Notes under the pieces: model-generated
The model's database searches: none
The model's input: the letters and a program-made list of their open reading frames with translations, nothing else
Told to the model about the DNA's origin: nothing
Source: a virus
Length of the DNA stretch: 25,993 bases
Direction: 5' to 3' (one strand)
UHGV virus genome: UHGV-0145247
In this document: piece by piece, positions 50 to 19,853 of the stretch
Layout: the number at the start of each line of letters is the position of its first letter
Numbering within the stretch: position 1 is the first letter of the stretch
Position numbers and translations under genes: made by a program

Positions 50-54
50 GGTGA

Positions 55-986: not shown

Positions 987-1199
987 CTACAGCGTATCCA
1001 GAATCTTCAGTATCTGCGCCATCAGGGCGGTGATAAGTGCAGTGACCAGCAACGTGACCGCTTCCCGGGCTGTATCAATACTGCTGTCATCGTAGCCTGC
1101 CTGACGCAGGCGAATTTCAATAAACTGTCGGGCCTGATGTCCGCCGCACCAGGTCAGTGCCTGGCTCAGGGCCGTCACCAGCATTTTCAGAAAGGTCAT
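987..1199 (-). CDS. Small hypothetical protein (~70 aa), start uncertain
   Basis: Protein-like helical sequence from internal ATG at 1199; longer ORF-track start at 1301 would overlap the upstream gene. Confidence 0.4.
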   Translation of the reverse strand: MTFLKMLVTALSQALTWCGGHQARQFIEIRLRQAGYDDSSIDTAREAVTLLVTALITALMAQILKILDTL

Positions 1200-1279
1200 G
1201 GGGTTTGCTCCGGGCTGCCTGGCGGCAGCCCTCTGGTGGAGTGAAGATTTCTTTGAGGAAGCTGATACAGGAAAGTGGC

Positions 1280-1639: not shown

Positions 1640-1693
1640 AATCTGTTCCTTATAAAAATAATGTCATCAACAGCCGTTAAATTCAGATACAGG

Positions 1694-2158
1694 CTAGAGT
1701 GCATCTTTACCCACGCAGCCGTGTGTCCCGAATGCCGGTAGTACCTTAGCCGCACCGGCCAGCGTGAATGTGGCAGGCTTAACACCGTCTCCTGTCACTG
1801 AGACCTGTTTGCCATTACGTAACTGAGCCCAGGCCAGCGCCAGGTTATTACCGCCCACGCGACTGCCAGATTCGCTGATATCAATAAGTGCCCCACCATC
1901 GATACTGACCTGAAGGCTTTTATCTTCATCCATACTGACCTGATGTCCGCTTGCGTCAGTAAATATGATCGTGGCCGGTTGCGAGCCATAATCCTCGCAA
2001 CTCAGAGACAGTTGTGACTGACCTTTTCCTTTGATAACAAACTCTGATACACCCTGTCCCCAACCCCGGGTCCAGGTCCCCTGACTGCCAGATGCCAGCG
2101 CCATAACCGGCAGCAGACTGCCAGCCAATACCAGGATGCTGAGTGATACATTTTTCAA
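1694..2158 (-). CDS. Exported protein with N-terminal signal peptide (154 aa)
   Basis: N-terminus MKNVSLSILVLAGSLLPVMALA; Ser/Gly-rich mature part. Confidence 0.6.
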   Translation of the reverse strand: MKNVSLSILVLAGSLLPVMALASGSQGTWTRGWGQGVSEFVIKGKGQSQLSLSCEDYGSQPATIIFTDASGHQVSMDEDKSLQVSIDGGALIDISESGSRVGGNNLALAWAQLRNGKQVSVTGDGVKPATFTLAGAAKVLPAFGTHGCVGKDAL

Positions 2159-2211
2159 GACGAACTCCTTCTGTTAGTAAAACTGCGGTGCTGACGAATG
2201 AACATGCGGGT

Positions 2212-2889
2212 TCATTCCCGGATGAGCCTGCTGATGTAATGAAAATGCGGCAGGGCCTGAATAAATCGCGGGTCTTCAAAAATTCGCCGGATATGATTGT
2301 TTCTGGTGAAGCCCCCGATGGTCATAACCACATCGGTGATGGCTGAAAGGGTAAATACCTGAATCCGCTCGCCAGTTATTGCCGTCAGGTACCACTCGCC
2401 TTCCAGACAGATAAGCCGGTAAGGGGCAACGGCGGACTGATGGTGTCCGTGGTGCAGAAAATGAATACGGCGACTGCTGATGATGGCCTGGATAATGACC
2501 TGAAAACCGCCAAACAACGCCGGAGCCTGACGGGGTGGCGTATTCCAGATAATGCAGGGGGAGTCTTGGCCGCTGTCGAGCAAGACCGACAACAATTTAG
2601 GGTCAAGTGCCGGAAAGTAATGTGCCACCTGGGTTATCTGGGCAAAGCGGATAATGTCGCAGTTAGTGCGAAAGGGGCCCCGTGCATCCCGCAGGCGAAA
2701 ATTACCCCCGGAATATTCCGTGTCGATATAGCGCAGGCGTTCACGCAGGTCGCGCTGCACGGTACGCTCAGAGACGCCAAACTCCTGAGCAAGTTGCCTG
2801 ACACTGAGCGTTTCTCCCATAAAGAGGCGGCTGACCAGTATGGCGAGACGGCTTGCCAGGCGGTCATAGCGTTGTTTCTGTTCAGACAT
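2212..2889 (-). CDS. HTH + WYL-domain transcriptional regulator (YfjR-like), 226 aa
   Basis: N-terminal HTH (LSVRQLAQEFGVSERTVQRDL), literal WYL motif (GEWYLTAI) in C-terminal half; start taken at internal ATG 2889 (MSEQKQ), the ORF-track start at 3120 is an antisense extension. Confidence 0.7.
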   Translation of the reverse strand: MSEQKQRYDRLASRLAILVSRLFMGETLSVRQLAQEFGVSERTVQRDLRERLRYIDTEYSGGNFRLRDARGPFRTNCDIIRFAQITQVAHYFPALDPKLLSVLLDSGQDSPCIIWNTPPRQAPALFGGFQVIIQAIISSRRIHFLHHGHHQSAVAPYRLICLEGEWYLTAITGERIQVFTLSAITDVVMTIGGFTRNNHIRRIFEDPRFIQALPHFHYISRLIRE

Positions 2890-2948
2890 GAGGGATGCTT
2901 CCTGCGCAAATAGCAGCCCTGTCGGGCTGGTGGTTAAGTAAAAAGATG

Positions 2949-3677
2949 TTAACGGGAAAGGTGCTGCTGTCTCAGCCAGGACACGATGATGCATGCGGGT
3001 ATCGTGACCCGATAAGCCGGACCGGTGATGTCGGAAATCATCCACGCTGAACTCAGGGCGATGGCAAGAGGACCAGCCAGAACGGAAAGAGCACGTGAAG
3101 CGACCACAACAGTTCCCCAAGTGGCAATGCCGCCCAGGGAGGTGATGACACTAGCAGACAACATCGTTGCCAGCTCGAGCGCAGCCAGCGAGGAAGTCCG
3201 GATGGCGGCCTGAACGGCGATAAGAATGAGTTGTGGCGTGGGGTTTGTCAGATCCAGATGCATATTGTGGGAGAAAGCAGCCAGCTCTTCTGGTGACATC
3301 TGATCCAAGCTTTTTTCCAGAACCTTCATCAACAGAGCAAGCTCAATGGTTTCGGTAGTACTTTTCTGGTTGTAATTCACATCAAGCTTGTCACAGACAT
3401 CAACGAGAATTTCCCGATAGGTCACGCCTTGCCCCAGCCGGACCAGGCTCGCCAGGGTATTCGCGCCGTAACGCTGAAGCTCAGCGGCTATCAGTTGCCA
3501 GTAGCGGCGATGGTCTGGTGCCAGCAGACGAAACTCCGGGGTTCCGGTAAGACTCTCTGTCCAACGAGTGTCGCCGTCTCGTGGGTCAGTGGTCAGGATG
3601 GAAATCAGCAATTGCAGTTCTTCATTGCTGCATTGGCCCAGCAGATTCAAATCAGGGTCATTACGGTAGACAGCCAT
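2949..3677 (-). CDS. Hypothetical protein (242 aa) with hydrophobic Ala/Ser/Gly-rich C-terminal region
   Basis: ORF with RBS GAGGA 7 nt upstream of ATG 3677; first gene of the WYL-regulator cluster. Confidence 0.55.
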   Translation of the reverse strand: MAVYRNDPDLNLLGQCSNEELQLLISILTTDPRDGDTRWTESLTGTPEFRLLAPDHRRYWQLIAAELQRYGANTLASLVRLGQGVTYREILVDVCDKLDVNYNQKSTTETIELALLMKVLEKSLDQMSPEELAAFSHNMHLDLTNPTPQLILIAVQAAIRTSSLAALELATMLSASVITSLGGIATWGTVVVASRALSVLAGPLAIALSSAWMISDITGPAYRVTIPACIIVSWLRQQHLSR

Positions 3678-3691
3678 TATCTATCCTCAGT

Positions 3692-3714
3692 CAGTGTGAT
3701 GTGAGGTCACACTG
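3692..3714. promoter_or_regulatory. Perfect palindrome CAGTGTGA-N7-TCACACTG, candidate operator or 5'-UTR hairpin
   Basis: 8-bp perfect inverted repeat 15-37 nt upstream of the start codon at 3677. Confidence 0.35.
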
Positions 3715-4282
3715 TAAAAGGGGCTATTGCACGGATGTGTCGTCAGAAATGGTTAATATATGCTCTATGGAAAGATATACGGACAGGGTGTGGCTGGAAA
3801 AATAGGGGAGGAACCAAACAGCTATAACGATTTTTATCGTGCCTGAGTGTTATCAATATAACGATAATGGCTAGTGAGTTTGTTTTTTTTGCTGCTTTAG
3901 GGTGATTATATATTTCCCAAATATTAATGAGCTTACATTTGTTTCTTTTGCTGCGTGTTGTTTCGTAGTATTAGGTAATCGATGCCTTCCACTTTGATGG
4001 CTAACGACAATTTTAATTTTAGTACTATAGTTTATTTATGGAGAAGTGATTGAAGTATAAAAGAGAGGTCTTGCTGAGTAAGGCTTCAGGAAGGTATCCG
4101 TTTGGAACGTAATAGGAAAGGTGGCAAAGTGTATGATGATGCCACCTTTCTAATATGTTAAATCTGACCTCTTTGTGTTAACAATAGGCCGGTTTTGTCC
4201 ATTTTTCAGTTGAAAGAAAGCCGGATTTAGCTGACTTTAGCTGTCCCAGGTAAGGTGCCAGATGCTAGTACGCAACTTACCA

Positions 4283-5497
4283 TTAGAAGTGATGTGGTAT
4301 GATTAAAACCCCATGTTTGTCCAAAGGCGGCACTGTGAAAAATGAATTGTAAAATAAAATACATGACTCCTGATTGTGTAAGTCTATTTGGAAATAACGG
4401 GATACATACCGTTCCAGAATGTTTTGATAATAATCATGGTTTAATTTTTCTTTATTCCTAGCTCGTTCAATTATGTCTTCGTGCAGACTTGAAAATACCT
4501 CAATTAAGTCATCCTTATCCCCATTTAACATGGCATGAAAAGCAGCAGCAGCAAATAACTCATTTGCAGGACCTGCAGACAGCCAGTGACTGCTTTCAAT
4601 AGAATTAATGGACTCCCTCAAACGCCAGAGACCCAAGCGCATTGCCTGATCGTTTAAAAGTTTCAGTAATGGTGGATAAGCATAAATGTCCGTACCAAAC
4701 AGCCTGCGTGGTACACTCAGATCTGCAAAGGTCACATGTTTTACAGAGGCTAGCGCTTCCTGTATTTCATCCTGACCATATTGCATCGTGAGCGCCTTTA
4801 ATAACGTCGATTTTACAGGCAGGGGAGAACCTGCCGCTTTTATGCCGCTGAACGTTCCTCGGGTTTTGCTCACGGGAATAGTGTCCTTCATCATCCTGTT
4901 AATCAACGCAGGGGCAATAATGATGTTATCCGCTGTATTGGCCCCCCCTTTGGAATTCGGATATATGTGACATAACTCCAGCTCCAGCCAGGGTATCAGG
5001 CGTTTAATAACCTGCCCCTGTGAATCAATAACCCTTTGCCCATTTAGAGTATTGTAAGCTTTCTGGTAGTCTGCTTTGCGCTGGTACAACCGGATGAGAT
5101 CAGCAATGTCATCAGGGCTGGTGATACTTCCCAGCCCGAGGGGATTATTCTTTAGCTTGGACTCCACGTTGATCCAGTAAGAATGTTTTACCAGACTGAC
5201 AATGGCATCGTCATCTATGAGCCTTCTATCTTTATTACGATGCCCAATACAACAATACCGTTGATTGCGAGTACCAGACAGGCTAATACCACAGGGCGGG
5301 TACTGACACGTCAGATTCCACCTTTGCGCTCTTTTAGCTGCATTAGAAAGCTTACCCTGATAATGTACAGAACATAAGCGGAATTTACGCTCATCAGGTA
5401 ATTCACCAATTGAGAGCGTACAGTTATTTCTTTTACAAATAGCCATAATAAGACTCTTATCACAGTTAATCATGTTGCATGATAAATAAATAGCCAC
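4283..5497 (-). CDS. HNH nuclease-domain protein with Cys-rich N-terminus (404 aa)
   Basis: Cys pairs in first ~110 aa, then HNH-like motif ELELCHIYPNSKGGANTADNIIIAPALINR; AT-rich gene between AT-rich spacers; GTG start at 5497 without clear SD, alternative ATG at 5473. Confidence 0.6.
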   Translation of the reverse strand: MAIYLSCNMINCDKSLIMAICKRNNCTLSIGELPDERKFRLCSVHYQGKLSNAAKRAQRWNLTCQYPPCGISLSGTRNQRYCCIGHRNKDRRLIDDDAIVSLVKHSYWINVESKLKNNPLGLGSITSPDDIADLIRLYQRKADYQKAYNTLNGQRVIDSQGQVIKRLIPWLELELCHIYPNSKGGANTADNIIIAPALINRMMKDTIPVSKTRGTFSGIKAAGSPLPVKSTLLKALTMQYGQDEIQEALASVKHVTFADLSVPRRLFGTDIYAYPPLLKLLNDQAMRLGLWRLRESINSIESSHWLSAGPANELFAAAAFHAMLNGDKDDLIEVFSSLHEDIIERARNKEKLNHDYYQNILERYVSRYFQIDLHNQESCILFYNSFFTVPPLDKHGVLIIPHHF

Positions 5498-5664
5498 TCA
5501 TTAATCATGATCATAATTGATGGTATTTTTTAATATATCGTTAGTAATTAAGATGTTTATGTCTCAAATGAATCTGAAATATACTAGTGGTTTAATAATA
5601 AATTAATTGTTAGTGCTCTTTTTATCACGTGGCATTGCTAAGTGGGCAGCAGATAATGCTGCAT

Positions 5665-5898
5665 TTATGGTTGTTCGGCAATAGTAGTTGATGATGCCAG
5701 ATGACGTTTCAGCAACCACTCATCCAGTTCAGACTCAAGCCAGCCGACAGATTGCATGCCTAGGCGACGTTGTTTAGGGAATGTGGCGTCATATCGTGGT
5801 GACATGGGGTTAATCCAGTCGTAGATGGTAGAACGGGCTACGCCTATCTTGTTGACAACACTAGACATACGCAGGATTTTAATGTGTTGAGTGTTCAT
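5665..5898 (-). CDS. alpA: AlpA-family transcriptional regulator / excisionase-like protein (77 aa)
   Basis: Resembles E. coli AlpA (ATIYDWINPMSPRYDATFPKQRRLG...SVGWLESELDEWL). Confidence 0.8.
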   Translation of the reverse strand: MNTQHIKILRMSSVVNKIGVARSTIYDWINPMSPRYDATFPKQRRLGMQSVGWLESELDEWLLKRHLASSTTIAEQP

Positions 5899-6023
5899 AC
5901 CGATTTGTTCCTTGTTGGCCCTGTATGGATGGGGCTAACTTTACCGAGAGGGCAAAATGGGATCCAGATATGTACCAAAAGTAAAAAAAAACTGTGGAAT
6001 GTGACGTTTTAAGAGAGGTTGGG

Positions 6024-6740
6024 ATGACAGACGATAGTGTTCTGGATGGCATTTTTGATTCAGTAAAGAGCGAAGCTGAGCGTTTTATATCGTGCTACAG
6101 CGGTAGTGATGATGTCAGTAGTTACAATGAACTCCGTGACCGGTGCGAGAGTAAAGCAAAAGAAAAAATTAATAAATTCAAGGAGGAAGGCTGCCACATC
6201 CTGGATGATGATTTTGAATGCATGCTTTACGATGCTAATTTTTCTGCACAATGGAATGGAAAGTTTGGAACGTATCTTGCCATTGCATTCTTCTTTTACC
6301 ACTGGGGGCAGTATTGTTATTCCTCTGGGCACCGGCGTGAAGGATTGCTATTTATGGCAAGAGCAGCTGGTTGTGGTGGAGTCTGGCAGGGGGCTGGGCT
6401 ATACGCTGACCGTGTAGAGACTGCTGAATTGGCGTTAAAGAAAAAGCAAGATCATGGAAAGAAGGGAGGAGAGGCTACTGGCTTGGCTTTAGCACCCGCA
6501 CGGGATGAGTTGAAGCGGTTGCTTAAAATAAACTGCCCGGCAGAAGGATGGAAAACTAAAACTGCAGCAATCGGTGCCGTTGTAGATCAACTTGAGGTTT
6601 TTGTTAAAAAACACAAAATAAATTTGAAAACCGATAATCTTGATAATGCCATATTAACATGGTGTAAGAGATATGATGATTTACGAGACGTATTGGAGAG
6701 TTCTTTAAAAAAGAACATGAAAAATAACCGCGTGGGTTGA
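6024..6740 (+). CDS. Hypothetical protein (238 aa), AT-rich, between alpA and integrase
   Basis: RBS AGAGAGG before ATG at 6024; no recognised motif; opposite strand to flanking genes. Confidence 0.55.
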   Translation: MTDDSVLDGIFDSVKSEAERFISCYSGSDDVSSYNELRDRCESKAKEKINKFKEEGCHILDDDFECMLYDANFSAQWNGKFGTYLAIAFFFYHWGQYCYSSGHRREGLLFMARAAGCGGVWQGAGLYADRVETAELALKKKQDHGKKGGEATGLALAPARDELKRLLKINCPAEGWKTKTAAIGAVVDQLEVFVKKHKINLKTDNLDNAILTWCKRYDDLRDVLESSLKKNMKNNRVG

Positions 6741-6913
6741 TTTTACCCATATGGACATTGGGACGTTGGCATCGTGGTGAAGGAGTACATTAATTAGCCG
6801 AAATCGTGAAGTATCTGCCTATGTGCAATTCGCTTTTTAAGATGGAATCCACGCCGTCTTCATAGACGGCGGAACTTTAACTAAACTGCAACTAAACATT
6901 GTTGGTATCTTCC

Positions 6914-8155
6914 TCATCCAACGAGCCGCATTCCTTTTATCCCCTCCTCAATGATAGTTCCGCGATCTGCAGCCATCACGAAGTCAGCCCACCATTGCAT
7001 CATAGGTCGCCGCTGTTCCAGATAATCGCTGCGATTGTAAGCTCGTCGTACCTCATTTTTGTCCACATGAGCAAGTGCGGCTTCAATGACATCAGGTGGA
7101 AAACCTTGCTCATTGAGTGCTGTGCTGGCGATAGAACGCAGGCCGTGAGAAACGAGTACGCCTCCTAAGCCAGCACGCTTAAGTGCGGCATTAACTGTTT
7201 GGCTGTTCATTGGCTGGGTTGGTTTGATGCGACTGGGAAAGATAAACTCTCGGCCACCGCTGAGGGACTTCATCACTTCCAGAATTGAGATAGCCTCATC
7301 TGATAGTGGAACCGTATGGTCTCGGTTCATCTTCATTCGAGCTGCTGGAATTTTCCATTCGTTAGCATCAAAATCGATCTCATCCCATCGTGCCTCAGCG
7401 GCTTCGGCAGGGCGGGTAATGGTGAGAAGCTGCCACATGAACAAGCACCGCGTTGACATACTGATACTTGCCGTACGCATAGTCTGCATTAGCTGCGGAA
7501 GTTGATCCGGGCGGATGCTTGGCATGTTTTTCTTTTGCGGTTTCTCAAATGCTTTTCCGATATTTACACTGGGAACTGCATCAATCAGGCCTGTGTTCTG
7601 CGCATAAATCATGACTTCGTTAATACGCTGACAAAGGCGGCGAACAGTCTCTAATGCACCTCTGGCCTGAACCGGCTGAACAGCTTTAACTAGAGTATGA
7701 GCCTTAATCTCAGTGACACTAATATCACCGATTGCTGGGAAAACATCTCTCTCAAGCGAGCGCCAGATATCGTCGGCATAGTCCTCTGTTACGCTGGCTT
7801 TCTTCACATTCCACCAACGCTCGGCAACTAACAGGAAAGTGTTGGTTTTAGCCTCTTGAGAATTTCTTACCTGTTCTTTCTGATGTTCCTGAGGATCAAT
7901 GTCTTTCGCCAACAAAACTCGAGATTCAGCTCTGAGTTTACGCGCATCAGAAAGGGAGACAGCAGGGTAGGCACCGAAGCTCTGTTTGGTTCGCTGTTTT
8001 GTCAGCGGTCGATAGTAACGGAACTGCCAGAGCTTACTACCACTGGACTTGATTAATAGAGTAAGCCCGTCACCATCATACAGCTGGTAATCGGCATCTT
8101 TAGGTTTGGCGGCTTTGATTTCCGTATCGGTTAACGGCTTGGTTTTTCTTGCCAT
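6914..8155 (-). CDS. intA: Tyrosine recombinase, P4-type integrase (IntA-like, 413 aa)
   Basis: N-terminus MARKTKPLTDTEIKAAKPKDADYQLYDGDGL typical of P4-family integrases; RBS GGAG 8 nt upstream of ATG 8155. Confidence 0.9.
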   Translation of the reverse strand: MARKTKPLTDTEIKAAKPKDADYQLYDGDGLTLLIKSSGSKLWQFRYYRPLTKQRTKQSFGAYPAVSLSDARKLRAESRVLLAKDIDPQEHQKEQVRNSQEAKTNTFLLVAERWWNVKKASVTEDYADDIWRSLERDVFPAIGDISVTEIKAHTLVKAVQPVQARGALETVRRLCQRINEVMIYAQNTGLIDAVPSVNIGKAFEKPQKKNMPSIRPDQLPQLMQTMRTASISMSTRCLFMWQLLTITRPAEAAEARWDEIDFDANEWKIPAARMKMNRDHTVPLSDEAISILEVMKSLSGGREFIFPSRIKPTQPMNSQTVNAALKRAGLGGVLVSHGLRSIASTALNEQGFPPDVIEAALAHVDKNEVRRAYNRSDYLEQRRPMMQWWADFVMAADRGTIIEEGIKGMRLVG

Positions 8156-8165
8156 GGGGAATCTC

Positions 8166-8200
8166 CATGCGTTTAGGCCCAACGAAAACAATAGAGCTTT
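8166..8200. other. Perfect 13-bp stem hairpin (GGCCCAACGAAAA / TTTTCGTTGGGCC, 9-nt loop) just upstream of integrase start
   Basis: Inverted repeat read directly from sequence. Confidence 0.5.
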
Positions 8201-8358: not shown

Positions 8359-8394
8359 TGGTGGAGCTGGCGGGAGTTGAACCCGCGCCCGAAA
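8359..8394 (-). other. ssrA: 3'-terminal fragment of tmRNA gene ssrA (att core shared by the two elements)
   Basis: Minus strand reads ...CGGACGCGGGTTCAACTCCCGCCAGCTCCACCA, matching the 3' end of E. coli tmRNA with one mismatch; similarity stops after ~36 nt. Confidence 0.8.
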
Positions 8395-8451
8395 ATTTAT
8401 AACCTCATGATAAACAGTGATAAAAAAATTTAGCGTTTTGCTGCGGATCCT

Positions 8452-9642
8452 TTACGGCTCCTTTGAGGTTCCACCGCTGACCAGCTTGGGTCGTTTTTCA
8501 GTGTTGCCGTCATACTCCTTCAGATAGCGTCCATAATGCCTGAACAACATTTCTGGCCCTTTATGTCCCATCTGTGATGCCAGCCAGAACAGGTTAGCGC
8601 CTCGACTTATATGTCGGGTCGCGAACGTATGCCTGGTCTGGTATGGATTGCGGTACCTGATCCCAGCTTTACGTAAAGTTGGCACCCAGGCTTTCTTTCT
8701 TATCGCATCGGCACCCGCCCATGGTTTTTCTGTCTTAGGATCCTCAAAGATCGTTGCATCTTTCATAAAGGTGAAAGGCTTCTGAGAAGTCAGGGCATAC
8801 AAGGCTTCTTCGGTCAACTCAACTTTACGTGTTCCAGCTTTAGTTTTCGTGCCCTTAATTACCCCCACTACGCTGGCATTTTGCACATGCGCTGTTTTGC
8901 CGATAAAGTCGATATCGCGCCAACGGAGGGCGCAGAGTTCAGAACTACGTAGCCCGGTTTCAATTGCAAAGCGGAATATGTTTTCCCACTGCTTATTACC
9001 CGCAGCATGCAAAAGCGCTTCAACCTCGGCCGGTGAAAGCGGATCAACAATATAATCACTTTCATCCTCGGTTTTACTGCTCTGGTAGCGCGAGGCTGTC
9101 ACCAGTGAAACAGGGTTAATCTGCAATACACCATCAGTCACAGCTTCATCCAGTGCTGAGCGTAGGAATGAAAGTTGGTTCCTAATCGTCTTTAATGTCG
9201 TTTTCTGACTCTGGATCCATGTTTTTAAAGCAGCAGGTGTTAATTCGCTGGCAGGAAAAACGTGAAGTGATGCCAGAGCATTTAAACATTTCTTATATCC
9301 GCCGATTGTTGAAGGAGATAATTTTCTCGTTTCACAAATTACAAGATATTCATCGAGATAATTTTTTACCGTTTTTCCTGTTGAAGCATTACCAAATATT
9401 TTAAGTCGTGCCGAACGGGGAAAGTGTTCACCATAATTGAATGTACCACGCTCAATTTTATTGTGAATTTCGCCGAGTGTTCGCTCGGCGTATTTAAGGT
9501 TTTTGCTATTAACTTCAAGGTTTGATAAAGGTTCCCGGCATTTCACCCCCTTATAGGTAAAGGTAATATTGATAGTTTCCCCAGTACTATGTTTCCTGAT
9601 CGTTACGCCGCGCGGGAGTTTAGGCGATTTTGTCGAGCCCAT
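8452..9642 (-). CDS. int: Phage integrase, tyrosine recombinase (396 aa)
   Basis: C-terminal catalytic region (RHTFATRHISRGANLFWLASQMGHKGPEMLFRHYGRY); next to att core. Confidence 0.9.
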   Translation of the reverse strand: MGSTKSPKLPRGVTIRKHSTGETINITFTYKGVKCREPLSNLEVNSKNLKYAERTLGEIHNKIERGTFNYGEHFPRSARLKIFGNASTGKTVKNYLDEYLVICETRKLSPSTIGGYKKCLNALASLHVFPASELTPAALKTWIQSQKTTLKTIRNQLSFLRSALDEAVTDGVLQINPVSLVTASRYQSSKTEDESDYIVDPLSPAEVEALLHAAGNKQWENIFRFAIETGLRSSELCALRWRDIDFIGKTAHVQNASVVGVIKGTKTKAGTRKVELTEEALYALTSQKPFTFMKDATIFEDPKTEKPWAGADAIRKKAWVPTLRKAGIRYRNPYQTRHTFATRHISRGANLFWLASQMGHKGPEMLFRHYGRYLKEYDGNTEKRPKLVSGGTSKEP

Positions 9643-9889: not shown

Positions 9890-10060
9890 TCATAGCGGTG
9901 AATCATCCCCCAGCTTCGCCTTTAAATCGCCAGTGACAAACCAGGCTGGAATTTCTCCGGCATTATTAGAGGATCGCCCCTGCGGTGAGGTGAATGACCC
10001 ACGCACGGGAATTAGTTTGATGAGGCTGACACATCGGCCAATTTCTTCAATGGTGCGCAT
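9890..10060 (-). CDS. Small ORF (56 aa), translationally coupled to upstream gene
   Basis: ATG overlaps the stop of the 347-aa gene (TGATG), RBS GGAGG upstream; below ORF-track cutoff. Confidence 0.3.
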   Translation of the reverse strand: MRTIEEIGRCVSLIKLIPVRGSFTSPQGRSSNNAGEIPAWFVTGDLKAKLGDDSPL

Positions 10061-11103
10061 CACTTCACCTCCTGCGGGGCGGCTGCGAAGTGATTAATGG
10101 CCTTATCCCAGATTTCTTTGATGGTGGTCCAGTCAATCGGCATGGTGCTCGTCCAGGTTCCCTCGCCGCTGCAGTCGTCGCACCCTTCACCAAAACACTC
10201 ATGGCATGTCAGCGTATATTCAAGATTGAATTCCCCGAGAAGCGCTGCTTTTGCACCGTTCTCAGCGGTTAGCCTCATCGGCACCATCACGTACCCCTCT
10301 GGAATTACCGTGGAGTTGCTAGCATTTGGATGCAGAGCGCGAATCCCTTCGGCTAATTCTTCCAGGGTGGATGAATATCCGCGCTGGGCATCATTGCCGA
10401 ACTCGAACGCTCCGGTATCAGGATTAGACCATCCATGCTCGCTGTCGTATGCCTCACGCTGCTTATCTATCCATTTGGCGGCGGCTTCAATGCCATCGCG
10501 ATAGAAAGTGACTACTGGCGCTGGCTGCTCTTTGATGTGCAAGCGAGGTTCACCGTCTTTCGGCTCAGGCCATTCGCGCTGTTTGTTCACTGCCAGCTTT
10601 TCGATCATCGCCTGGGTAATCTGTTCGTCGGTGATACCGGCACGACGCTGGGCATCCCACATCAGGAATTGCATATCAGCCCACTCCGACAGGTCATCTG
10701 GTTCCGCTGCGGCCTCCATAGCCTCTTTTGCCAGATGCTTCAGTGGTCCAACAGGGCCGACATTACCGAATGTTGCCTGTGACCACTCTGAGTGCTCGCG
10801 GCGTACCTGCTCTCGGTCCTTTGCTGGTTGCGCTGGCGGATAATTTGCCAGCATCCAACTAATGACGTAGTCGTCCTTGAACCGCTCAACCGGAAATCCT
10901 TCATTCCAGTCACGGAAGTGATAGATAACTTTTGCCAGCTCAGGTTGAAGCGCCACCGGCTCGTTGTCCATTGCGGCCAGCGCCATGCGAGACAGCTCCT
11001 CAGCCTCTTCAGCTGGCAGCATTACGTTGCTTCCGGCACCGTAGGTTTCACGCCATGATTTAATTTTTTCCAGGCGCTCTCTGGTTATGGTCGATTTGGT
11101 CAT
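10060..11103 (-). CDS. Phage early protein with DUF550-like domain (Ead/Ea22-like), 347 aa
   Basis: Motif HLAKEAMEAAAEPDDLSEWADMQFLMWDAQRRAGITDEQI resembles the DUF550 family seen in lambdoid early regions (from memory). Confidence 0.5.
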   Translation of the reverse strand: MTKSTITRERLEKIKSWRETYGAGSNVMLPAEEAEELSRMALAAMDNEPVALQPELAKVIYHFRDWNEGFPVERFKDDYVISWMLANYPPAQPAKDREQVRREHSEWSQATFGNVGPVGPLKHLAKEAMEAAAEPDDLSEWADMQFLMWDAQRRAGITDEQITQAMIEKLAVNKQREWPEPKDGEPRLHIKEQPAPVVTFYRDGIEAAAKWIDKQREAYDSEHGWSNPDTGAFEFGNDAQRGYSSTLEELAEGIRALHPNASNSTVIPEGYVMVPMRLTAENGAKAALLGEFNLEYTLTCHECFGEGCDDCSGEGTWTSTMPIDWTTIKEIWDKAINHFAAAPQEVK

Positions 11104-12561: not shown

Positions 12562-13065
12562 TCAAGACAGTTGCTCCACCTTGATGCCAGCGGCGGTCAG
12601 CGCCGCTAGAAATTCGTCAACTTCATCACGCATGTATATTCCAAGCTTCTCTCCGCCGACTGTGATATGCCCCGGCCGCATCGGTTTCACGGTGACGGTG
12701 CGGGACTCCAGCTCGGCGATGCGCTCTTTTGCCACCAATAATTCAGCAGCAATTTCACGCCAACTTTCATAACTGGCCTCAAGCTTGTCCCAATCAGGGT
12801 TGAAGTTGGCAAGCTCAGACAACTGGCCTTTCAGAAACGCATTACTCTTCTGCGCCTTCTCCAGCGCCTCTGCCATCTCAGCGCCAGCCGCTTTCCATGC
12901 CTCCCACATTCCCTCAAGCTCTGAGTCGTCATCGTCAACCTTATAGCCTTCCCCATCGCGCCAGTGCGACCAGCCAAAACGCGGCGGATTGCCGTTATGC
13001 TGGGTGCGCTCCCACCACGCTTCGAATTTCTCTCTCTGCGCCAGTTCGGTGATATCAGTTGTCAT
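12562..13065 (-). CDS. Hypothetical phage protein (167 aa)
   Basis: Acidic, coiled-coil-like ORF; start overlaps methyltransferase stop (ATGA). Confidence 0.55.
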   Translation of the reverse strand: MTTDITELAQREKFEAWWERTQHNGNPPRFGWSHWRDGEGYKVDDDDSELEGMWEAWKAAGAEMAEALEKAQKSNAFLKGQLSELANFNPDWDKLEASYESWREIAAELLVAKERIAELESRTVTVKPMRPGHITVGGEKLGIYMRDEVDEFLAALTAAGIKVEQLS

Positions 13066-13790
13066 GCTGCACGCTCCCGTTTAATCACCATGCGCTCGAA
13101 TGCGGTGCAAAATATTTCCGGATCTTTTTCTACGCCTATAAACCGGCGCCCTGATTGCTGACACGCAACGCCAGCAGTCCCGCTACCCATAGTGAAGTCC
13201 AGTACTGTATCGCCATGATTGCTGTAGGTTTCAATCAGGTATTTCACAAGCGCCAAAGGCTTTTGCGTTGAATGAAGAGCTTGTTTTTGCTTATCACTAG
13301 AGAATTTCTGCACATCTCGCGGATAGCGGCTTGTTGAATCGTAAGTGACTTTTTTCAACGCCTCGCCATAGACATCAGTATTCGGCGTGCCTCTTGTTGC
13401 AGTTTTTCTGGCGTGCCCATGCGTCATCTGTGGGTTGTATGTCGGCTGCTTTCTGTAAAAAACCTCAATATTTTCATGTGCACGAAGAGGTTGTTTTTTC
13501 GCATTCAGGAAACCTGTAGCGTGTGGCTTCTCCCAAATCCACTCCGACCGCCAGTCCCGCAGATTGCTGTTAATCAGCACGCTGGTGAACGGCTGAGCGG
13601 AAAACAGCACAATAGCGGCGCTGGGCTTAGCGATGCGGTAGAGTTGCTCCCACATCAGAGCCAAGTCGAGAACAGAATCCCAGCGGCACTGAGTGGTACC
13701 GTATGGGATATCAGCACATACCAGGTCAACGGTACCGCTGGCGATTTTCGGGAATACGTCGAAGCAATCTGCGTTGTGAAGGTAGATCAT
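13062..13790 (-). CDS. DNA methyltransferase, N6-adenine/N4-cytosine type (242 aa)
   Basis: Motif IV-like DIPYGT near N-terminus and AdoMet-binding DFTMGSGTAGVA near C-terminus. Confidence 0.8.
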   Translation of the reverse strand: MIYLHNADCFDVFPKIASGTVDLVCADIPYGTTQCRWDSVLDLALMWEQLYRIAKPSAAIVLFSAQPFTSVLINSNLRDWRSEWIWEKPHATGFLNAKKQPLRAHENIEVFYRKQPTYNPQMTHGHARKTATRGTPNTDVYGEALKKVTYDSTSRYPRDVQKFSSDKQKQALHSTQKPLALVKYLIETYSNHGDTVLDFTMGSGTAGVACQQSGRRFIGVEKDPEIFCTAFERMVIKRERAA

Positions 13791-14380: not shown

Positions 14381-14511
14381 GCCGTCACCCATTCGATCAT
14401 CATGCATACGCCCCAGGTCACAGCGACTACTGCAACCCACCCGATAACACTGACCAGTGCAGCAAACCAGAGAAGGGCGCGCCGGCTGTAATTTTCAGGT
14501 TCAAAGTTCAT
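14377..14511 (-). CDS. Small hydrophobic protein (44 aa), likely membrane peptide
   Basis: MNFEPENYSRRALLWFAALVSVIGWVAVVAVTWGVCMMIEWVTA; ATGA overlaps at both ends; below ORF-track cutoff. Confidence 0.35.
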   Translation of the reverse strand: MNFEPENYSRRALLWFAALVSVIGWVAVVAVTWGVCMMIEWVTA

Positions 14512-15293
14512 TGCGCCTCCCCAATTACCCAGCGCAGAGCCTCGGCATATTCGCCGCTGGCATCTTCAAGGGCTTTAGTGATTTCCTTACGCGATTTGAT
14601 GCGCGGCTTTGCCTCACCGAGAACCTGACGCTGCCGACGGGATTTTTCATGGCCTTTGGTACCAGCTGTCGCCAGCTCGATTTCTGCCACTTTTGCCCGC
14701 TGCTCTTCAGGTGGGAGCGCGCCAAGCTGACGCGCCTGGGTAACGGTAACTGTGCCAGACTCGACCGCTTCACGAACAGCCTGGGTAGCATCGAGTAGTG
14801 ACAGCGTTGCACGGACAGTCTGAACGCTACAGCCAAACAACACCGCAAGGTCGTCCTCGTCATGACCACGATCCAGCGCGTCTGACATTTTCTTAGCTCG
14901 ACCTAATGGCGTATCAGGTCGGCGGATTTCGTTTTCGCTGACCATATATTTGGCCATTTGGTTTGCAGACCCACGCTTAACGACTCCAGGAACAAGCAGC
15001 GGTGTTTTGCCTTCTTTCAGCAGGAGCTTATTGGCTTCCAGCGTATGTTTAACGCGCTGACGACCGACAACCACACAGGTGAGCCCCTTTTCAGGGTCTT
15101 TCCAGACAATAATCGGCTCAAGAACACCCAGCTCCTTGATATTCAGCACCATCCCTTCATCGATCGGCAGATTGACTCGCTCATCGTAAAGCGGGTGGGC
15201 CTTGTCAGTGACAATATGCAGATTTTCCGGCTCGAACATCAGAACGTTTGTCTTGCCGCTGGCGCCATAAGCATCGATCGAGTTTTTAGCCAT
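14508..15293 (-). CDS. ParB-like nuclease-domain protein (261 aa)
   Basis: ParB N-terminal-domain-like segment LGVLEPIIVWKDPEKGLTCVVVGRQRVKHTLEA; RBS GAGGAA. Confidence 0.65.
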   Translation of the reverse strand: MAKNSIDAYGASGKTNVLMFEPENLHIVTDKAHPLYDERVNLPIDEGMVLNIKELGVLEPIIVWKDPEKGLTCVVVGRQRVKHTLEANKLLLKEGKTPLLVPGVVKRGSANQMAKYMVSENEIRRPDTPLGRAKKMSDALDRGHDEDDLAVLFGCSVQTVRATLSLLDATQAVREAVESGTVTVTQARQLGALPPEEQRAKVAEIELATAGTKGHEKSRRQRQVLGEAKPRIKSRKEITKALEDASGEYAEALRWVIGEAQ

Positions 15294-15517: not shown

Positions 15518-16012
15518 TCATGAACAGGCCATAAGATTGACCAGGGCGGCGGGATTAATCACAAATTGGTCGGTGGGAATAATACCGTCGAGCATCGGCC
15601 AGTGGGTGCCGTCGTCGATCTCAAAGTCGCGACGTTCGCTGGCGAGCATCACAAGGTCGGCATACTTTACGGTCGGGTGCTGCTCAGCTGGCAGGCAGAA
15701 TTTTTGACGGATAGCAGCATCAACCCGATCCTCAATGGCGCGGTAGTCCGGGAGCAGGCGCTTAAGCGGTGCTGGAATATCCTGCAAATAAGCCTCTGCG
15801 GCATCGTGCAGTAGTGCTTCAAGAGCAAACTCCTGTGGTACCAGGTGGCTGGTTAACACGCTGTGCTGACCGACGCTGTAGAACTCCGGAAGATGGCCAG
15901 CAAAGCGGCAAATATTCGAGAGCGCGTTAGCGATATCTTCGATCTCAATGGCATCCAACTGGATATCGAGATAGTTAAAGTGCTTGCCTGTGAACGTTTG
16001 AATAAAGCTCAT
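15518..16012 (-). CDS. HD-domain phosphohydrolase (YfdR-like), 164 aa
   Basis: HD motif context ALEALLHDAAEAY; start at internal ATG 16012 with RBS GGAGAA. Confidence 0.7.
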   Translation of the reverse strand: MSFIQTFTGKHFNYLDIQLDAIEIEDIANALSNICRFAGHLPEFYSVGQHSVLTSHLVPQEFALEALLHDAAEAYLQDIPAPLKRLLPDYRAIEDRVDAAIRQKFCLPAEQHPTVKYADLVMLASERRDFEIDDGTHWPMLDGIIPTDQFVINPAALVNLMACS

Positions 16013-16108
16013 CGTATTTCTCCATTTAATTGCGCTCTGCACAGCGCTGATTTTTAGGTGTAGGAATCCCTCGCCGGGTGGCGATTAATTTCAGGATTAC
16101 GCTTTAAT

Positions 16109-17028: not shown

Positions 17029-17400
17029 TCACTGAGCCGCTTTAAGCTTTCCGTCCACCGCGCCGGTGATACCGAAGAGTTGCCCCTGATCCTCCTGCAG
17101 GATAGTGAGCTTGCCGCCTTTGTTAACCCACATTGGTGTTTCGGTGGTGTCCTCTTCCGACGCTTTGCCGCGGGGAGTAGGAGTGCTGTAGTTCAGCTTG
17201 TGCTTAATCTTGACGCGCTTCTCTTCAACAGAGTTGCCCATACGCTCAAAATCAAAGGTGAGGACAACCTTGCCTTTGTTGCCATTGTTCAGAACGCCGA
17301 GCGCGGTGGTATTAAGAGCCGCCGCAATCTTGTTCATGAATACGCCGGCGTCCAGTTCACCGAGGAAATCGGGCACTACTGTCATGCGATCATTACTCAT
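17029..17400 (-). CDS. Hypothetical phage protein (123 aa)
   Basis: Start at internal ATG 17400 (MSNDRMTVV) with RBS GAGGG. Confidence 0.5.
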   Translation of the reverse strand: MSNDRMTVVPDFLGELDAGVFMNKIAAALNTTALGVLNNGNKGKVVLTFDFERMGNSVEEKRVKIKHKLNYSTPTPRGKASEEDTTETPMWVNKGGKLTILQEDQGQLFGITGAVDGKLKAAQ

Positions 17401-18497
17401 GGTTTTACCCTCTCGAAAGGCGGCTGCCACCGCCGGGAATTTCTCCGTACACAACACAGAAGAGCACCTGCGGTTAGGACGCCGCCCGGGTGGATTGGGT
17501 AATGAGCCCGTCGCCCGGTGATGCTCTTTTGTATTGTGTAAAAAGGGCGGTTATCCATCAGAACGTTATCCTCTTCCTCCTTTGGATAGTGGAAAACTGG
17601 ATAACCGCCAAGACTACACACAGCACAGTTAACTAGGTTGTGGCGGTGGTGCCTCCACCTGCCGGGTTAAGCCATTACCGGCGACGTACACTGCCCGGAA
17701 ACGCATTCCATGAACGGGTTGGCTCGCCACGTGCGCATAGCCGCAATTACCACAACGGAAAGAGCACTCCGATCTTCTACCAACGCCCCGTCGTAGCTTT
17801 TCGGCGCATCCACATGGCGCTTGGGTTTCAGCCTCGTGTGGCGGGAATGCTCTTACCTGTTGTGTCCCGGACTCTTCCCGGGCGTCACACCTTTTCGCCG
17901 CGCTGGTGGGGCGCACGTCGTGCCTGAAACACTTGGCTTGCACATTCCAGTTGTCCGGATAGCGCATGGAACTTCAAGGGAACCATCCGGGCTGCTAACG
18001 CTGCATGTGCCATACAACGGTTGTGAATATTGCCGTTCACAACTGGAAGCGCACTCCTTCAGTTACAAACCAGTCCCCACGACGGATGAAGATGGAATGC
18101 GCTTTCATGTTGTGTACGGTTCACCTACCCCGGTCCGGCGGCGCCACATCGCCGGGGCAGATGCAAAGGATCGTTACGCGATCATTCGGCTTGTTGATAT
18201 GGCCGGAAGTATCAAGTCCCGACATCGCGGATTCTGCTTCTCCGCCCCGATTTCACCCCCGCTATTGTTTAGCGCGCAAACCGAGAAAATCGCCTTCAAC
18301 GCTGTCGGCTTTCGCCATGTTCGATCAGGTATCTTCGGGCGGGGAGCCGGCGACCAACCGGCACAACCCCTACAGTATTAATCCAGGTCTACTGGACCCT
18401 CGACGCCGTGGGTTAAACGGCTGCTGTATGTCGGGTGAGTTTCTGTTGCTGGTGGTCAATCCAGCTCCGCAACCCCTCCCGAAGACACCTGAGGTAA

Positions 18498-18731
18498 TTA
18501 AATTGCCTTAGCCGGCAGGCCGAGGACGCTACGCATTTCTTTTTGAGTGCGAATGGCTATGGCGATCGTTAGGTCAATATCTCCGCGGTAAGCTGTGCCA
18601 TCTTCACAAATAATAAGAGTGATTGATTTTTTGCCTTTCTTGCTTACCTCGAAGCGATGCGCTTTACGGACTACATGACAGCCGTTTGCTAATGCGTCCT
18701 TGATAAGGTTTTCAATGCCTTTGCTCGCCAT
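18498..18731 (-). CDS. Hypothetical protein (77 aa), first leftward gene beyond cI
   Basis: RBS AGGAA 7 nt upstream of ATG 18731. Confidence 0.5.
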   Translation of the reverse strand: MASKGIENLIKDALANGCHVVRKAHRFEVSKKGKKSITLIICEDGTAYRGDIDLTIAIAIRTQKEMRSVLGLPAKAI

Positions 18732-18865
18732 GTTCTGTTCCTATTTGGTTTATCTGTTAGCGAATCATCCCGGTCTTCATATGCCCCGGGCGGCTACTTC
18801 GTGGGCGTCCTGCCTCTTCGCTGTTGATAGATGAAAATCTAACTTAACTTAGTTTTGTCGTCAAG

Positions 18866-18896
18866 AAAAAACACCAAACTTTTCTTAGCTTGGTGT
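18866..18896 (-). terminator. Rho-independent terminator downstream of cI
   Basis: ACACCAA / TTGGTGT stem followed on minus strand by T6 (18866-18871). Confidence 0.45.
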
Positions 18897-18916
18897 CGAA
18901 GGGAGATTAGCTTAGA

Positions 18917-19543
18917 TCAGAGCTCGTATTGAACGCCTTTAACCACACCAATAATGACGCAGTTACCATTGATGGCGATGTTAGGATAACGGGGATTTAG
19001 CGGGACAAGAAATTTTTGCGGACCGTCTACAACCAGTTTTTTGACCGTGGCCTCGTTGGTCCCATCTATTCGTGCAACTACAATCTTTCCATGAATGGGC
19101 TCAATGTCTGGATCAACGATGACCGTTGCGCCTTCAGGAATCGTGGGCAGTCCATTAGGATTTGTCATTGAGTCTCCCTTTACTTCAAGGGCAAACGAGT
19201 TATCGCTGATGCGGAGAGACGTTTCCACCCATTTTTCGGCATCATGCAAGACATCTTCAGGCTTTGATTCAGTGAATAATCCTGCTTGCACCCACGATAT
19301 CACGGGAACTTTTCGCATCTTAGTTATTAAGTTTCCCTCAAACTCAGTGCCAAAAAGTATGTAATCAATTGATGTATTGAAGAATTTTGCTAGTTTGGAA
19401 AGAGATTCCCCTCCTGGGACGTTTACATCCTTTTCCCAATACCCAACTGCGACATCACTGACCCCACAAAACTTCCCAAGCTCTTTTTGTGAGGTTCTGG
19501 TGATTCGCCTAAGCGATTTTATTCGTTGTCCGACAGTTTCCAT
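18917..19543 (-). CDS. cI: CI-like repressor (HTH + LexA-like S24 peptidase domain), 208 aa
   Basis: N-terminal HTH (TSQKELGKFCGVSDVAVGYWE), C-terminal S24-like region (EVKGDSMTNP...GKIVVARIDG); no SD before ATG, consistent with leaderless cI. Confidence 0.85.
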   Translation of the reverse strand: METVGQRIKSLRRITRTSQKELGKFCGVSDVAVGYWEKDVNVPGGESLSKLAKFFNTSIDYILFGTEFEGNLITKMRKVPVISWVQAGLFTESKPEDVLHDAEKWVETSLRISDNSFALEVKGDSMTNPNGLPTIPEGATVIVDPDIEPIHGKIVVARIDGTNEATVKKLVVDGPQKFLVPLNPRYPNIAINGNCVIIGVVKGVQYEL

Positions 19544-19643: not shown

Positions 19644-19853
19644 ATGACCACCGATGATGTTGAAAAGTACTTTGGAAACGCTGAGAAGGTAGCCGAGTTC
19701 TTTGGCATATCCAGCGAAGCTGTTTATCAGTGGCGGAACAGACCCGGTCGCTTGATCCCAAAAGGGAGGGCTGCTGAAGCCGCGTACCGCACCGATGGGA
19801 AACTTGTTTTCCAACCGGAGCTGTATAGCAAGCTTAAAGAACAAAAAGTTTGA
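19644..19853 (+). CDS. cro: Cro-like HTH regulator (69 aa)
   Basis: Strong RBS AAGGAG; small HTH protein divergent from cI. Confidence 0.7.
   Translation: MTTDDVEKYFGNAEKVAEFFGISSEAVYQWRNRPGRLIPKGRAAEAAYRTDGKLVFQPELYSKLKEQKV

Follow-up and report, generated by a model that had tools for sequence, protein, structure and literature searches.

The virus genome UHGV-0145247 raises a question in its early-left operon, where a block of about 1.1 kb (positions 17401-18497 of the 25,993-nucleotide stretch that we analysed, hereafter the window) lies between two genes, orf77 (18498-18731, minus strand) and orf123 (17029-17400, minus strand), with no evident gene of its own. What does it do there? An original prediction made from the sequence gave two candidates, a large structured RNA and a decayed gene. 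We conclude that the block is very probably an array of non-coding structured RNAs, members of an unannotated cassette family in which a closing helix of about 20 bp encloses inserts, here called cargos, that differ greatly between phages.

Coding potential and composition of the block

The block had been described as poor in open reading frames (ORFs), higher in GC than its neighbours and full of inverted repeats, and all of this holds. The ORFs present are of 95-186 aa and overlap in several frames, and none of the 10 compared with Pfam and PHROGs could be placed in a family, the sole match (E=0.017) being meaningless. GC content is 0.55-0.58 over 17450-18499 as against 0.41-0.53 in the flanks. 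There are 22 inverted repeats within the block, and the perfect 12-bp pair GGCGGTTATCCA/TGGATAACCGCC, at 17546-17557 and 17598-17609, is the core of a 23-nt inverted repeat.

The block was aligned with homologues from other phage loci and variable sites were tallied per codon position. The tallies of 168/131/142 (p=0.086) show no periodicity, and the three longest ORFs of the block give p=0.17-0.41, whereas the three flanking genes are all strongly periodic (p=1e-7 for orf77, and 3e-15 and 1e-20 for the others). Furthermore 343 of the 400 indels in the block (86%) are not a multiple of 3. The original prediction had proposed just such an alignment for comparing compensatory with codon-like change, and what it brought out was compensatory pairs and no codon periodicity. 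With this periodicity missing, the indels breaking the frame and the protein-family searches empty, the decayed gene is ruled out as a reading of the block. The only thing to be said for a pseudogene is the presence of those ORFs in several frames; no relative that we fetched has the modules in a coding-like form, and the modules show RNA covariation instead. We regard this alternative as next to impossible.

The closing helix and the strand on which it is read

The block contains three units, A (17448-17540), B (17750-17867) and C (18038-18120), with common arms that read ACACAAC-A-nG-n-AAGMGCAUUCC on the 5' side and GGAGUGCKCUU-n-Cn-GUUGUG on the 3' side. The arm motif occurs 4 times in the window, as against 0.08 expected, and the three units match it with 0 mismatches and fit the covarying helix. 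All three are on the minus strand, which is the direction of the operon. For the family as a whole the closing helix is of about 20 bp, in which an outer part, CACAAC/GUUGUG, is separated by a bulge or mismatch from AAGAGCAUU/AGUGCUCUU, where there is a U·G wobble; across loci it is typically ACACAACAGGUAAGAGCAUUG ... CAGUGCUCUUUCCGUUGUG, enclosing 30-140 nt. In most true motif matches among the fetched loci the cargo is wholly different from phage to phage.

Family alignments had 47-62 members, and the helix statistics are from 47 distinct B/C-type arm pairs. In these 95.2% of cells are paired, as against 37-56% with the partners slid by 1-3 columns. Compensatory double changes are present in 7 of the 18 closing-helix pairs (47 cells), a level reached by 0 of 500 column shuffles; examples are A-U/C-G/G-C at one pair and G-C/U-A at another. 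The outer six pairs, CACAAC/GUUGUG, are almost invariant. Read on the minus strand, the wobble position has U·G in 32 sequences, with 7 having C-G and 6 U-A. Its commonest form would become a C·A mismatch if the opposite strand were read, and the helix is therefore taken to be an RNA helix read on the minus strand. The sub-family of unit A has no bulge and its helix also covaries (8 compensatory among 23 predicted pairs). A covariance model, R1, scores unit C at 35.5 bits when the minus strand is read, as against 11.9 for the plus strand. The covariance model with a GAAA linker in place of the cargo is poor on long insertions, and recovers C well and A and B weakly; no family counts were taken from it.

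Strand can also be judged from neighbouring genes in other phages. For units near tRNA genes (within 1.5 kb), 27 of the 28 that are well paired read CACAAC..GUUGUG on the tRNA strand, and when arms are oriented by neighbouring tRNA genes there are 33 G·U as against 16 A·C. The nearest downstream ORF of at least 120 aa is co-oriented with the unit in 74 of 95 cases, and the nearest upstream ORF in about half.

Modules of the block, their order and their carriers

Read 5' to 3' on the minus strand the order of modules is U1, U2, unit C, a mini-hairpin, spacer S1, unit B, spacer S2, a hairpin T, unit A and the 5' leader of orf123. BLAST against GenBank phages and E. coli genomes matched the block piecewise (query 1-256, 237-361, 446-723, etc.). 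Module sharing was counted among about 120 viral contigs fetched by means of the arm motif, and the number of other phage loci in which a module is conserved proved to be 6-36, namely 16-36 for units A and C, for T and for the spacers, about 10 for U2 and about 6 for U1. The order also varies. In Salmonella prophage ST64B it is pL, U1, a terminator, a B-type unit, a spacer, T, unit A and then gene sb37; some other prophages have four units, and locus L043 has one extra unit.

With regard to the original prediction, a structured RNA is upheld by conservation, compensatory changes, strand asymmetry and the lack of a coding signal, but the idea of one large RNA is not, as there are at least 7 modules. 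Because these have differing phage distributions we see the block as a mosaic rather than as one RNA gene; each module is conserved in a set of phages of its own, and they recombine independently. GOLLD and ROOL are large RNAs that adjoin tRNA genes in phages, and the block could be taken for one large ornate RNA of that sort, with the hairpin units as peripheral domains. It is indeed about 1.1 kb of continuously structured, non-coding sequence, associated with phage tRNA genes as GOLLD and ROOL are, and like them it is an unexplained structured RNA beside such genes in phages and prophages. However those are single large RNAs of fixed architecture and this is a modular, variable and recombining array, the modules of which are in different and partly non-overlapping sets of phages, with number and order varying, and of which P1 and virulent phages hold units and spacers only. 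An intrinsic terminator lies inside the block, a long-range covarying helix was not found, and the Rfam models for GOLLD and ROOL (RF01998, RF03087) do not match. We consider one large RNA highly improbable.

The individual modules, all on the minus strand, are as follows. U1 (18325-18492) is a branched hairpin of about 170 nt with a 20-bp closing helix, CAGGUGUCUUCGGGAGGGG/CCCCGCCCGAAGAUACCUG; 3 of its 50 predicted pairs have a compensatory change in an alignment of 6 sequences. U2 (18121-18324), of about 200 nt, has multiple hairpins, and 8 of its 52 predicted pairs have a compensatory change among 7 sequences; one hairpin, GAUC-GCGUAAC-GAUC, reads GGCA-GCGUAAC-UGCC in relatives. Unit C is a cassette hairpin with the helix ACACAAC-A-UG-A-AAGCGCAUUCC / GGAGUGCGCUU-C-CA-GUUGUG, and its cargo has a 7-nt loop, UUUGUAA, at 18063-18069. 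The mini-hairpin (18008-18030) is CACAAC-C-GUUGUA, a closing helix without cargo, and its significance is uncertain: a 13-nt core is found in all 19 homologous copies, with variable sequence, and no filled/empty polymorphism at this site was found among those 19. Spacer S1 (17868-18007), between units C and B, is kept in about 25 loci. Unit B is a cassette hairpin closed by the canonical helix ACACAACAGGUAAGAGCAUUCC / GGAGUGCUCUUUCCGUUGUG; its cargo (about 17771-17846) is hypervariable, being kept in 6 loci as against 27-36 for its arms.

Spacer S2 (17621-17749) contains the hairpins h2 (17732-17745; UGCGGCUAUGCGCA) and h3 (17645-17659; GGUGG-AGGCA-CCACC) and the module boundary ..GCCACAAC. 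The stem of h3 covaries (GGUGG/CCACC, CCUGG/CCAGG, UCUGG/CCAGA, CAUGG/CCAUG). S2 has matches at 94 places on E. coli plasmids, and the one fetched is a P1-like plasmid of about 93 kb. Hairpin T (17546-17620) resembles an intrinsic terminator, is followed by CUUUUU, includes the 12-bp pair and directly abuts unit A; its homologues retain hairpin and U-tract with stems that are wholly different yet fully compensated. A simple terminator scan missed T owing to its long loop. Unit A is a cassette hairpin without a bulge, with the cargo core GACGGGCUCAUUACCCAAUCC, in which GGG-CUCAUUA-CCC is at 17487-17499, and there is a second covarying hairpin in its cargo. The orf123 leader (17401-17447) has GGAGAAA, a hairpin GGCGGUGGCAGCCGCC (17419-17434) and a Shine-Dalgarno sequence, with the ATG at 17400; leader and unit A are conserved together in about 26-30 loci. 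Fold z scores against dinucleotide shuffles are -5.8, -2.1 and -4.1 for units A, B and C respectively, and the spacing between units is 250-330 nt. Just upstream of T the loop of a small hairpin (17619-17642), AGTTAACTAG, has 10 of the central 12 bases of the E. coli trp operator palindrome; homologues vary there and the likeness is probably chance.

The setting is that of a lambdoid early region. A pL-like sigma-70 promoter (18836-18864, minus strand; TTGACG-17-TAGATT, a consensus match only) sits between orf77 and a gene for a cI-type S24 repressor (18917-19543, minus strand), which is upstream of the block and diverges from a Cro gene (19644-19853, plus strand). Judged from its sequence and place, this promoter (18864-18836) is likely to be the start of a leftward early transcript that contains the block. 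The first gene past pL is orf77 (phrog_12911, 77 aa), which lies outside the RNA array and is common to only about 4 loci. On the other side orf123 (phrog_204, 123 aa) is followed in the operon by a DUF2303/YfdQ-like gene and a YfdR-like gene. In the original prediction the block was placed where lambda has pL, nutL, N and tL1. As to position that comparison stands, the block being downstream of pL and containing a terminator of the intrinsic kind, but neither a nut/N element nor a put element turned up. Pfam gave no exo, bet or erf family on ten other ORFs, although no systematic search for these was made.

Further along the early-left operon, all on the minus strand, are genes for a YfbR/YfdR-like 5'-deoxynucleotidase (15518-16042), a ParB-HTH protein (14508-15293), a DNA methylase (13062-13790) and a dATP/dGTP pyrophosphohydrolase-like protein (10060-11103). 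At 8359-8406 (minus strand) the last 49 nt of E. coli ssrA, the gene for transfer-messenger RNA (tmRNA), are matched at 88%. This fragment lies between two integrase genes, at 6914-8191 (P4-type, Arm-DNA-bind_3) and 8452-9642 (prophage, Arm-DNA-bind_2), and the arrangement suggests tandem integration of two elements at the tmRNA gene. The left one of these (1-8191) also encodes DUF932, a WYL/HTH regulator and DUF3944.

There are expression data for the region homologous to the block in ST64B. In Salmonella D23580 this prophage gives a 74-nt non-coding RNA, STnc1310, at 200-2400 transcripts per million (PMC7067206). It is highest in peroxide or nitric-oxide shock, with the prophage induced, and the genes downstream of cI rise in parallel (PMC7067206). 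We place STnc1310 at about 2895-2968 of locus L002, the coordinates being mapped via cI and sb36; there it starts within the 3' arm of the U1 helix and ends at an intrinsic terminator. This shows that the homologous pL-proximal gap in ST64B is transcribed on the operon strand, and suggests a processing site in the long U1 helix.

The arms are widespread. Of 5426 complete E. coli genomes 1050 have them, and none of the matches listed falls under an annotated feature; they are also in 145 GenBank phage records from unrelated groups. Carriers include the lambdoid phages HK629, HK633 and mEp460 and Stx2 phages, Klebsiella and E. coli phages of 46-48 kb, N4-like phages, Ackermannviridae, P1-like elements, a phage taken as Mu-like from its vB_EcoM name and 42-kb genome, and Erwinia and Cronobacter phages. 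In GTDB, with one genome per species, 38 of 120 candidate loci have full units, and the credible hosts are all Enterobacterales. The scan was done with a 17-mer and gave many chance matches, and only the 38 loci with both arms were counted; titles from outside the Enterobacterales were discounted, being mostly of short or low-coverage contigs.

Some carriers have the same modules in otherwise different genomes. The 3' arm and 12-20 bases downstream of it are 100% identical in many GenBank phages, and one 47-nt cargo is 100% identical across phages with genomes of 47, 72 and 146-160 kb. Bas77 and the N4-like phage nithesis have in common a non-coding module of about 350 nt around a unit, with a different cargo inside. 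Homology between phages often stops exactly at ..CCACAAC. From the shared arms and cargos, and from the breaks at the arms, we infer that modules move horizontally, with the conserved arms as mosaic joints.

In several phages the units keep company with tRNA genes. In P1 and P1-like elements they start 1-2 nt past the CCA end of tRNA-Thr or tRNA-Ser, and in nithesis and the Ackermannviridae phage Magnus they are just upstream of tRNA genes, on the same strand, in tracts annotated as "hypothetical protein" genes of 30-45 codons. Annotation of such regions deserves comment. In P1 (AF234172, L249) at least 3 units are directly downstream of tRNA-Thr on the tRNA strand, at 1400-2000 of the locus, and the stretch is annotated on the opposite strand as upl and plp (putative lipoprotein), ORFs that may be spurious. 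Rows of tiny hypothetical proteins are annotated at 1360-3330 in nithesis (L125) and 1900-4430 in Magnus (L126), and in Salmonella D23580 the annotated start of STMMW_20251 extends across T and unit A of ST64B; both the rows and the extension are probably annotation artefacts. In the P1-like plasmid pE2863-2 (L003) an array of units and tRNA genes at 2312-4734 is followed immediately by a Tad2 (anti-Thoeris) gene. Magnus, a virulent Klebsiella phage, also has a match to STnc100 (RF02076; 52.9 bits, gathering threshold 47) at 4071-4285, in its unit-bearing non-coding tract and upstream of tRNA-Met and tRNA-Arg.

Cargos, known systems and possible function

Some cargos resemble parts of tRNA. 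In unit A the core GACGGG-YUCAUWA-CCC-AAUCC is carried on a covarying helix in 23 variants, and GGG/CCC and U-CAU-A are invariant in 22-23 of them, giving three G-C pairs and a 7-nt loop. Initiator tRNA is classically recognised by three consecutive G-C pairs beside a CAU anticodon loop, and most unit A homologues read CGGGCUCAUAACCC, which is 14 nt of the E. coli tRNA-fMet anticodon arm (the tRNA sequence was verified against 5426 E. coli genomes). The motif is found twice more in P1, where the loops are UUCAUAU and GUCAUAU. In the case of unit C the hairpin with the loop UUUGUAA is kept across 19 variants, and the loop is identical to the anticodon loop of a phage tRNA-Thr(UGU) in L005, L008 and L009. 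Hairpins like a T-arm (G-UUCRANY-C, stem of at least 4 bp) are present in 7 of 108 units on the RNA strand and in 0 on the reverse.

Other RNA-like sequences were seen in or near units elsewhere. In L105 (about 7779-7987, minus strand) one unit has for its cargo a minimal hammerhead core that is complete, GCGCGC-CUGACGAG-stem II-CGAAAC-stem III-GUC-GCGCGG, and that scores below the Rfam gathering threshold. Nithesis has beside its units, at 2268-2404, a tmRNA-like tag frame, AUAAAU-GCA AAC GAU GAU GUU AUU CUG AUG GCG GCG UAA, encoding ANDDVILMAA*, which recurs in L014, L035, L047, L057, L088, L105, L124 and L126 to make nine phage loci. Three Rfam models for tmRNA match this module below threshold, the lowest E being 0.001; a tRNA-like domain was not found in it, ARAGORN is silent, and the window does not have it. 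The choice is between a phage derivative of tmRNA and a decoy. Nithesis also has two tRNA-like RNAs, of 66 nt (2700-2775) and, with a large insert, about 125 nt (about 2781-2910), in which a 7-bp acceptor stem, T-arm and ACCA end are present and a normal anticodon arm is absent; neither is called by ARAGORN or Rfam.

The covariance-model scan that the original prediction had suggested gave no known RNA family in the block, even at E<=10. With Rfam 15, run on the whole window at gathering thresholds and on the block at E<=10, there was only noise (mir-1246, a DicF-like terminator, mir-971); 13 related loci gave only tRNAs, and a unit with two T-arms gave nothing. The family hairpin is without RefSeq annotation, and neither the arm and core sequences nor a description of the element was found in the full-text literature searched, the PasA/PasC and EcOnc sequences being outside the comparison. 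With regard to tRNA and tmRNA, ARAGORN finds 0 genes in the window and Rfam none in 17300-18900 at E<=10, and comparison of E. coli ssrA with the modules gave only att-site matches, the fragment at 8359-8406 being the sole tmRNA-related sequence of the window. DicF (RF00039) reaches 16.5 bits (E=1.8, gathering threshold 48) at 17545-17622 on the minus strand, in an alignment that covers only the terminator stem and U-run with a 28-nt insertion, and the models for AgvB, AsxR and STnc100 do not match the window above noise. DicF, AgvB/AsxR, STnc100 and Pas are like the array in being small RNAs from the same kinds of prophage site. STnc1310 likewise comes from the homologous pL-proximal gap, but its common part with the window is the U1 3' arm only.

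Four further systems invite comparison. The put RNA of HK022 is a V-shaped pair of stem-loops of about 70 nt (PMC9378689). The array is like put in being structured RNA just past pL, in a lambdoid phage without recognisable N and with terminators downstream, but its units are single long hairpins, have no copy after pR and are also present in non-lambdoid virulent phages. A blastn comparison (word size 7) of HK022 23000-30000 (Nun, putL, cI) with the block gave only chance 14-mers, and neither an arm-motif search nor the covariance model found a second copy of a unit downstream of pR, units being confined to 17.4-18.2 kb on the minus strand. In the case of the integron attC site, the core consensus is RYYYAAC ... 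GTTRRRY, from which the core ACACAAC ... GTTGTGG has one deviation per side, and a bulged A and a U·U mismatch are present. Both are imperfect palindromes of similar total length with an outer core, an internal bulge or mismatch and a variable terminal structure, both are strand-asymmetric and both show cassette-like exchange. Unlike attC sites, the units have no evident IntI and no ORF cassettes between them, the core deviates, the variable part has RNA motifs, and the units are co-oriented with tRNA genes and transcription; the window's integrases have phage-type arm-binding domains and flank the ssrA att site about 8 kb away. The Y RNA YrlA has a conserved end-to-end stem that closes a variable module able to mimic tRNA, much as here, but the stem sequence differs and most cargos are not tRNA-like. 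Rfam gave no Y RNA/YrlA match at E<=10 in the block or in the unit with two T-arm-like hairpins, and rsr and rtcB were not noticed in the neighbourhoods inspected, though there was no systematic search for Rsr. Type III antitoxins of the ToxI kind are tandem direct repeats of about 34-36 nt beside a gene for a ToxN/AbiQ-type endoribonuclease, and can be set aside, as the units are hairpins spaced 250-330 nt and the neighbours are phrog_12911, phrog_204 and DUF2303.

Small stable RNAs co-transcribed and co-processed with phage tRNAs, namely the 'species 1 and 2' RNAs of T4 and the M3 RNA of phi80 (an RNase P substrate), are perhaps nearest in kind. They too are non-coding hairpin RNAs of about 60-140 nt in or beside phage tRNA clusters on the same strand; the present family differs in having a 20-bp family helix with swappable cargo and in being also in lambdoid early and late operons without tRNAs. 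By analogy, then, the array would seem to work most like these unexplained stable RNAs of phage tRNA clusters, with an architecture that appears most like that of a Y RNA or an attC site.

A model can be put forward on this basis. A leftward early transcript from the pL-like promoter, read from the minus strand, would carry the array, and the closing helix would be both scaffold and processing signal, cut by a host nuclease such as RNase III or RNase P, leaving the cargo RNAs to accumulate as stable small RNAs alongside phage tRNAs. Some cargos would mimic tRNA arms, unit A that of initiator tRNA, unit C the loop of tRNA-Thr(UGU) and others a T-arm. Enteric VapC toxins cleave initiator tRNA in the anticodon arm, and the mimics might decoy or titrate host factors that recognise tRNA arms, VapC-type anticodon nucleases being one example. 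T, just upstream of unit A, would limit read-through to the early genes. We give the whole, that is an array with scaffold and processing roles and some tRNA-arm mimics, about an even chance of being right as an explanation of the sequence. The scaffold-and-processing role of the helix is, taken separately and on the same footing, plausible with the balance a little against it, and a mimic or decoy function of the cargos seems rather unlikely as matters stand.

Several observations weigh against this model. The P1 variants of the unit A motif read GGGGUCAUAUCCC and GGGUUCAUAUCCC, all unit A variants share a tail, AAUC(C/U)AC, that tRNA-fMet lacks, and we estimate that, taken alone, about 0.05 matches of 14 nt to tRNA-fMet would be expected by chance in the comparisons made. 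Most cargos resemble nothing recognisable, and 7-nt loops like those of anticodons are not enriched in cargos (12 on the RNA strand, 23 on the reverse); tRNA mimicry can therefore cover only some cargo families, and the likeness was noticed post hoc. STnc1310 overlaps only the edge of U1 and none of the units. The outer 6 bp, and often 30-40 nt of arm and flank, are identical in unrelated phages, which fits recent DNA transfer at least as well as RNA constraint. G·T pairs stabilise hairpins of single-stranded DNA too, and the strand asymmetry is not strict proof of RNA. Finally, in the virulent siphophage Bas77 the unit is antisense to the annotated neighbouring genes.

The main rival for the window, given that T, unit A and the orf123 leader travel together, is a cis-acting leader, in which the hairpins and T, with the additional terminator of ST64B, set pL read-through or the level of mRNA for the early genes and the cargo is mostly free loop. 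[quoted passage not shown] The position suits it, the block being between pL and the first conserved early genes, with the covarying T directly upstream of unit A and the leader, and these three are conserved as one block with the phrog_204 gene in about 26-36 loci. An N-like protein is not evident. In ST64B, with two terminators and without an annotated ORF from pL to sb37, sb37 and sb36 are nevertheless strongly expressed on induction, and STnc1310 has its 5' end within the long U1 helix, a position that fits cutting by a double-strand-specific nuclease. A leader does not account for units in the tRNA arrays of virulent N4-like phages and Ackermannviridae, in Bas77 and after the 3' ends of P1 tRNAs, nor for cargos that hold conserved covarying sub-structures and invariant loops; the second copy past pR expected of a put-like system is absent, and there is no sequence similarity to the putL region of HK022. 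We judge a cis-acting leader unlikely. The identity of arms, flanks and whole cargos (95-100%) in phages with no other DNA in common is what one would expect if the arms were sites of a selfish or recombining DNA element, like a miniature inverted-repeat transposable element (MITE) or an attC cassette, with transcription incidental. So is the swapping of cargo exactly at the arms within a conserved module, as are the breaks in homology at ..CCACAAC, the outer 6 bp that are invariant and do not covary, the loose resemblance of CACAAC/GTTGTG to the attC core and the existence of cargo-free mini-hairpins. Against this stand the compensatory changes of the inner helix, the U·G/C-G/U-A series, the fixed orientation to tRNA genes and downstream ORFs, and RNA motifs readable on one strand only (T-loops 7 to 0, the hammerhead core, anticodon-type loops). 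Moreover target-site duplications were not seen and the flanking sequences are conserved modules too, there is no co-occurring dedicated recombinase (the two integrases of the window are of ordinary phage or island type), the mini-hairpin site is without filled/empty polymorphism, and ordinary homologous recombination at arms conserved as RNA explains the mosaicism equally well. A DNA-level element is to our minds quite unlikely.

There is also the possibility that the units are base-pairing regulatory RNAs or sponges, with the cargos as antisense guides against RNAs of the host or of competitor phages. CACAACA is the target consensus of GcvB, and lambdoid moron sites are where the sponge AgvB is found (PMC4104026). 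The R1 seed of GcvB has as its consensus target the sequence of the 5' arm, ACACAACA, the one that AgvB uses, and the 3' arm with its flank (GUUGUGAUG/GUUGUGGUG) resembles the GcvB seed itself; units are in the same kinds of site as AgvB, and hypervariable cargo is to be expected of guides. However the CA-rich and GU-rich arms are locked in a stable 20-bp helix, and the Rfam models for AgvB, AsxR, STnc100 and DicF are not above noise. When 17 cargos were compared with 50,697 phage records they matched only their own copies, in unannotated or tiny-ORF DNA and never under a feature with an assigned function, and, leaving aside hairpin T before unit A, none of the units has after it a terminator whose U-tail would be of the kind that binds Hfq. 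This we consider very unlikely.

Returning to the RNA array, a wider reading would make it part of a mobile RNA cassette system in Enterobacterales phages, in which the scaffold helix, set within transcripts of tRNA or early genes, presents interchangeable small structured RNAs that are shuffled between unrelated phages, with P1, lambdoid, N4-like, Ackermannviridae and other virulent phages among them. The cargos would then include mimics of tRNA arms, a hammerhead ribozyme and many of no recognised kind, and would serve as decoys or effectors in conflict of phage with host or of phage with phage. This is a tentative suggestion from sequence comparison and one that we hold to be doubtful. If the RNAs are real, about one fifth of complete E. 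coli genomes and many phages, including P1, carry an unannotated family of structured RNAs. Annotation pipelines should not call ORFs across such arrays, and the scaffold helix could serve as a natural platform for expression of stable RNAs. The family bears on why phages carry tRNA islands and on the role of the stable RNAs beside phage tRNAs, and also on the organisation of the early-left leader in lambdoid phages without N. The combination of conserved scaffold, hypervariable cargo, identical cargos and tRNA look-alikes suggests a function in an arms race that can be tested, and a mobile cassette system, if that is what it is, would be a counterpart at the RNA level of the protein anti-defence islands.

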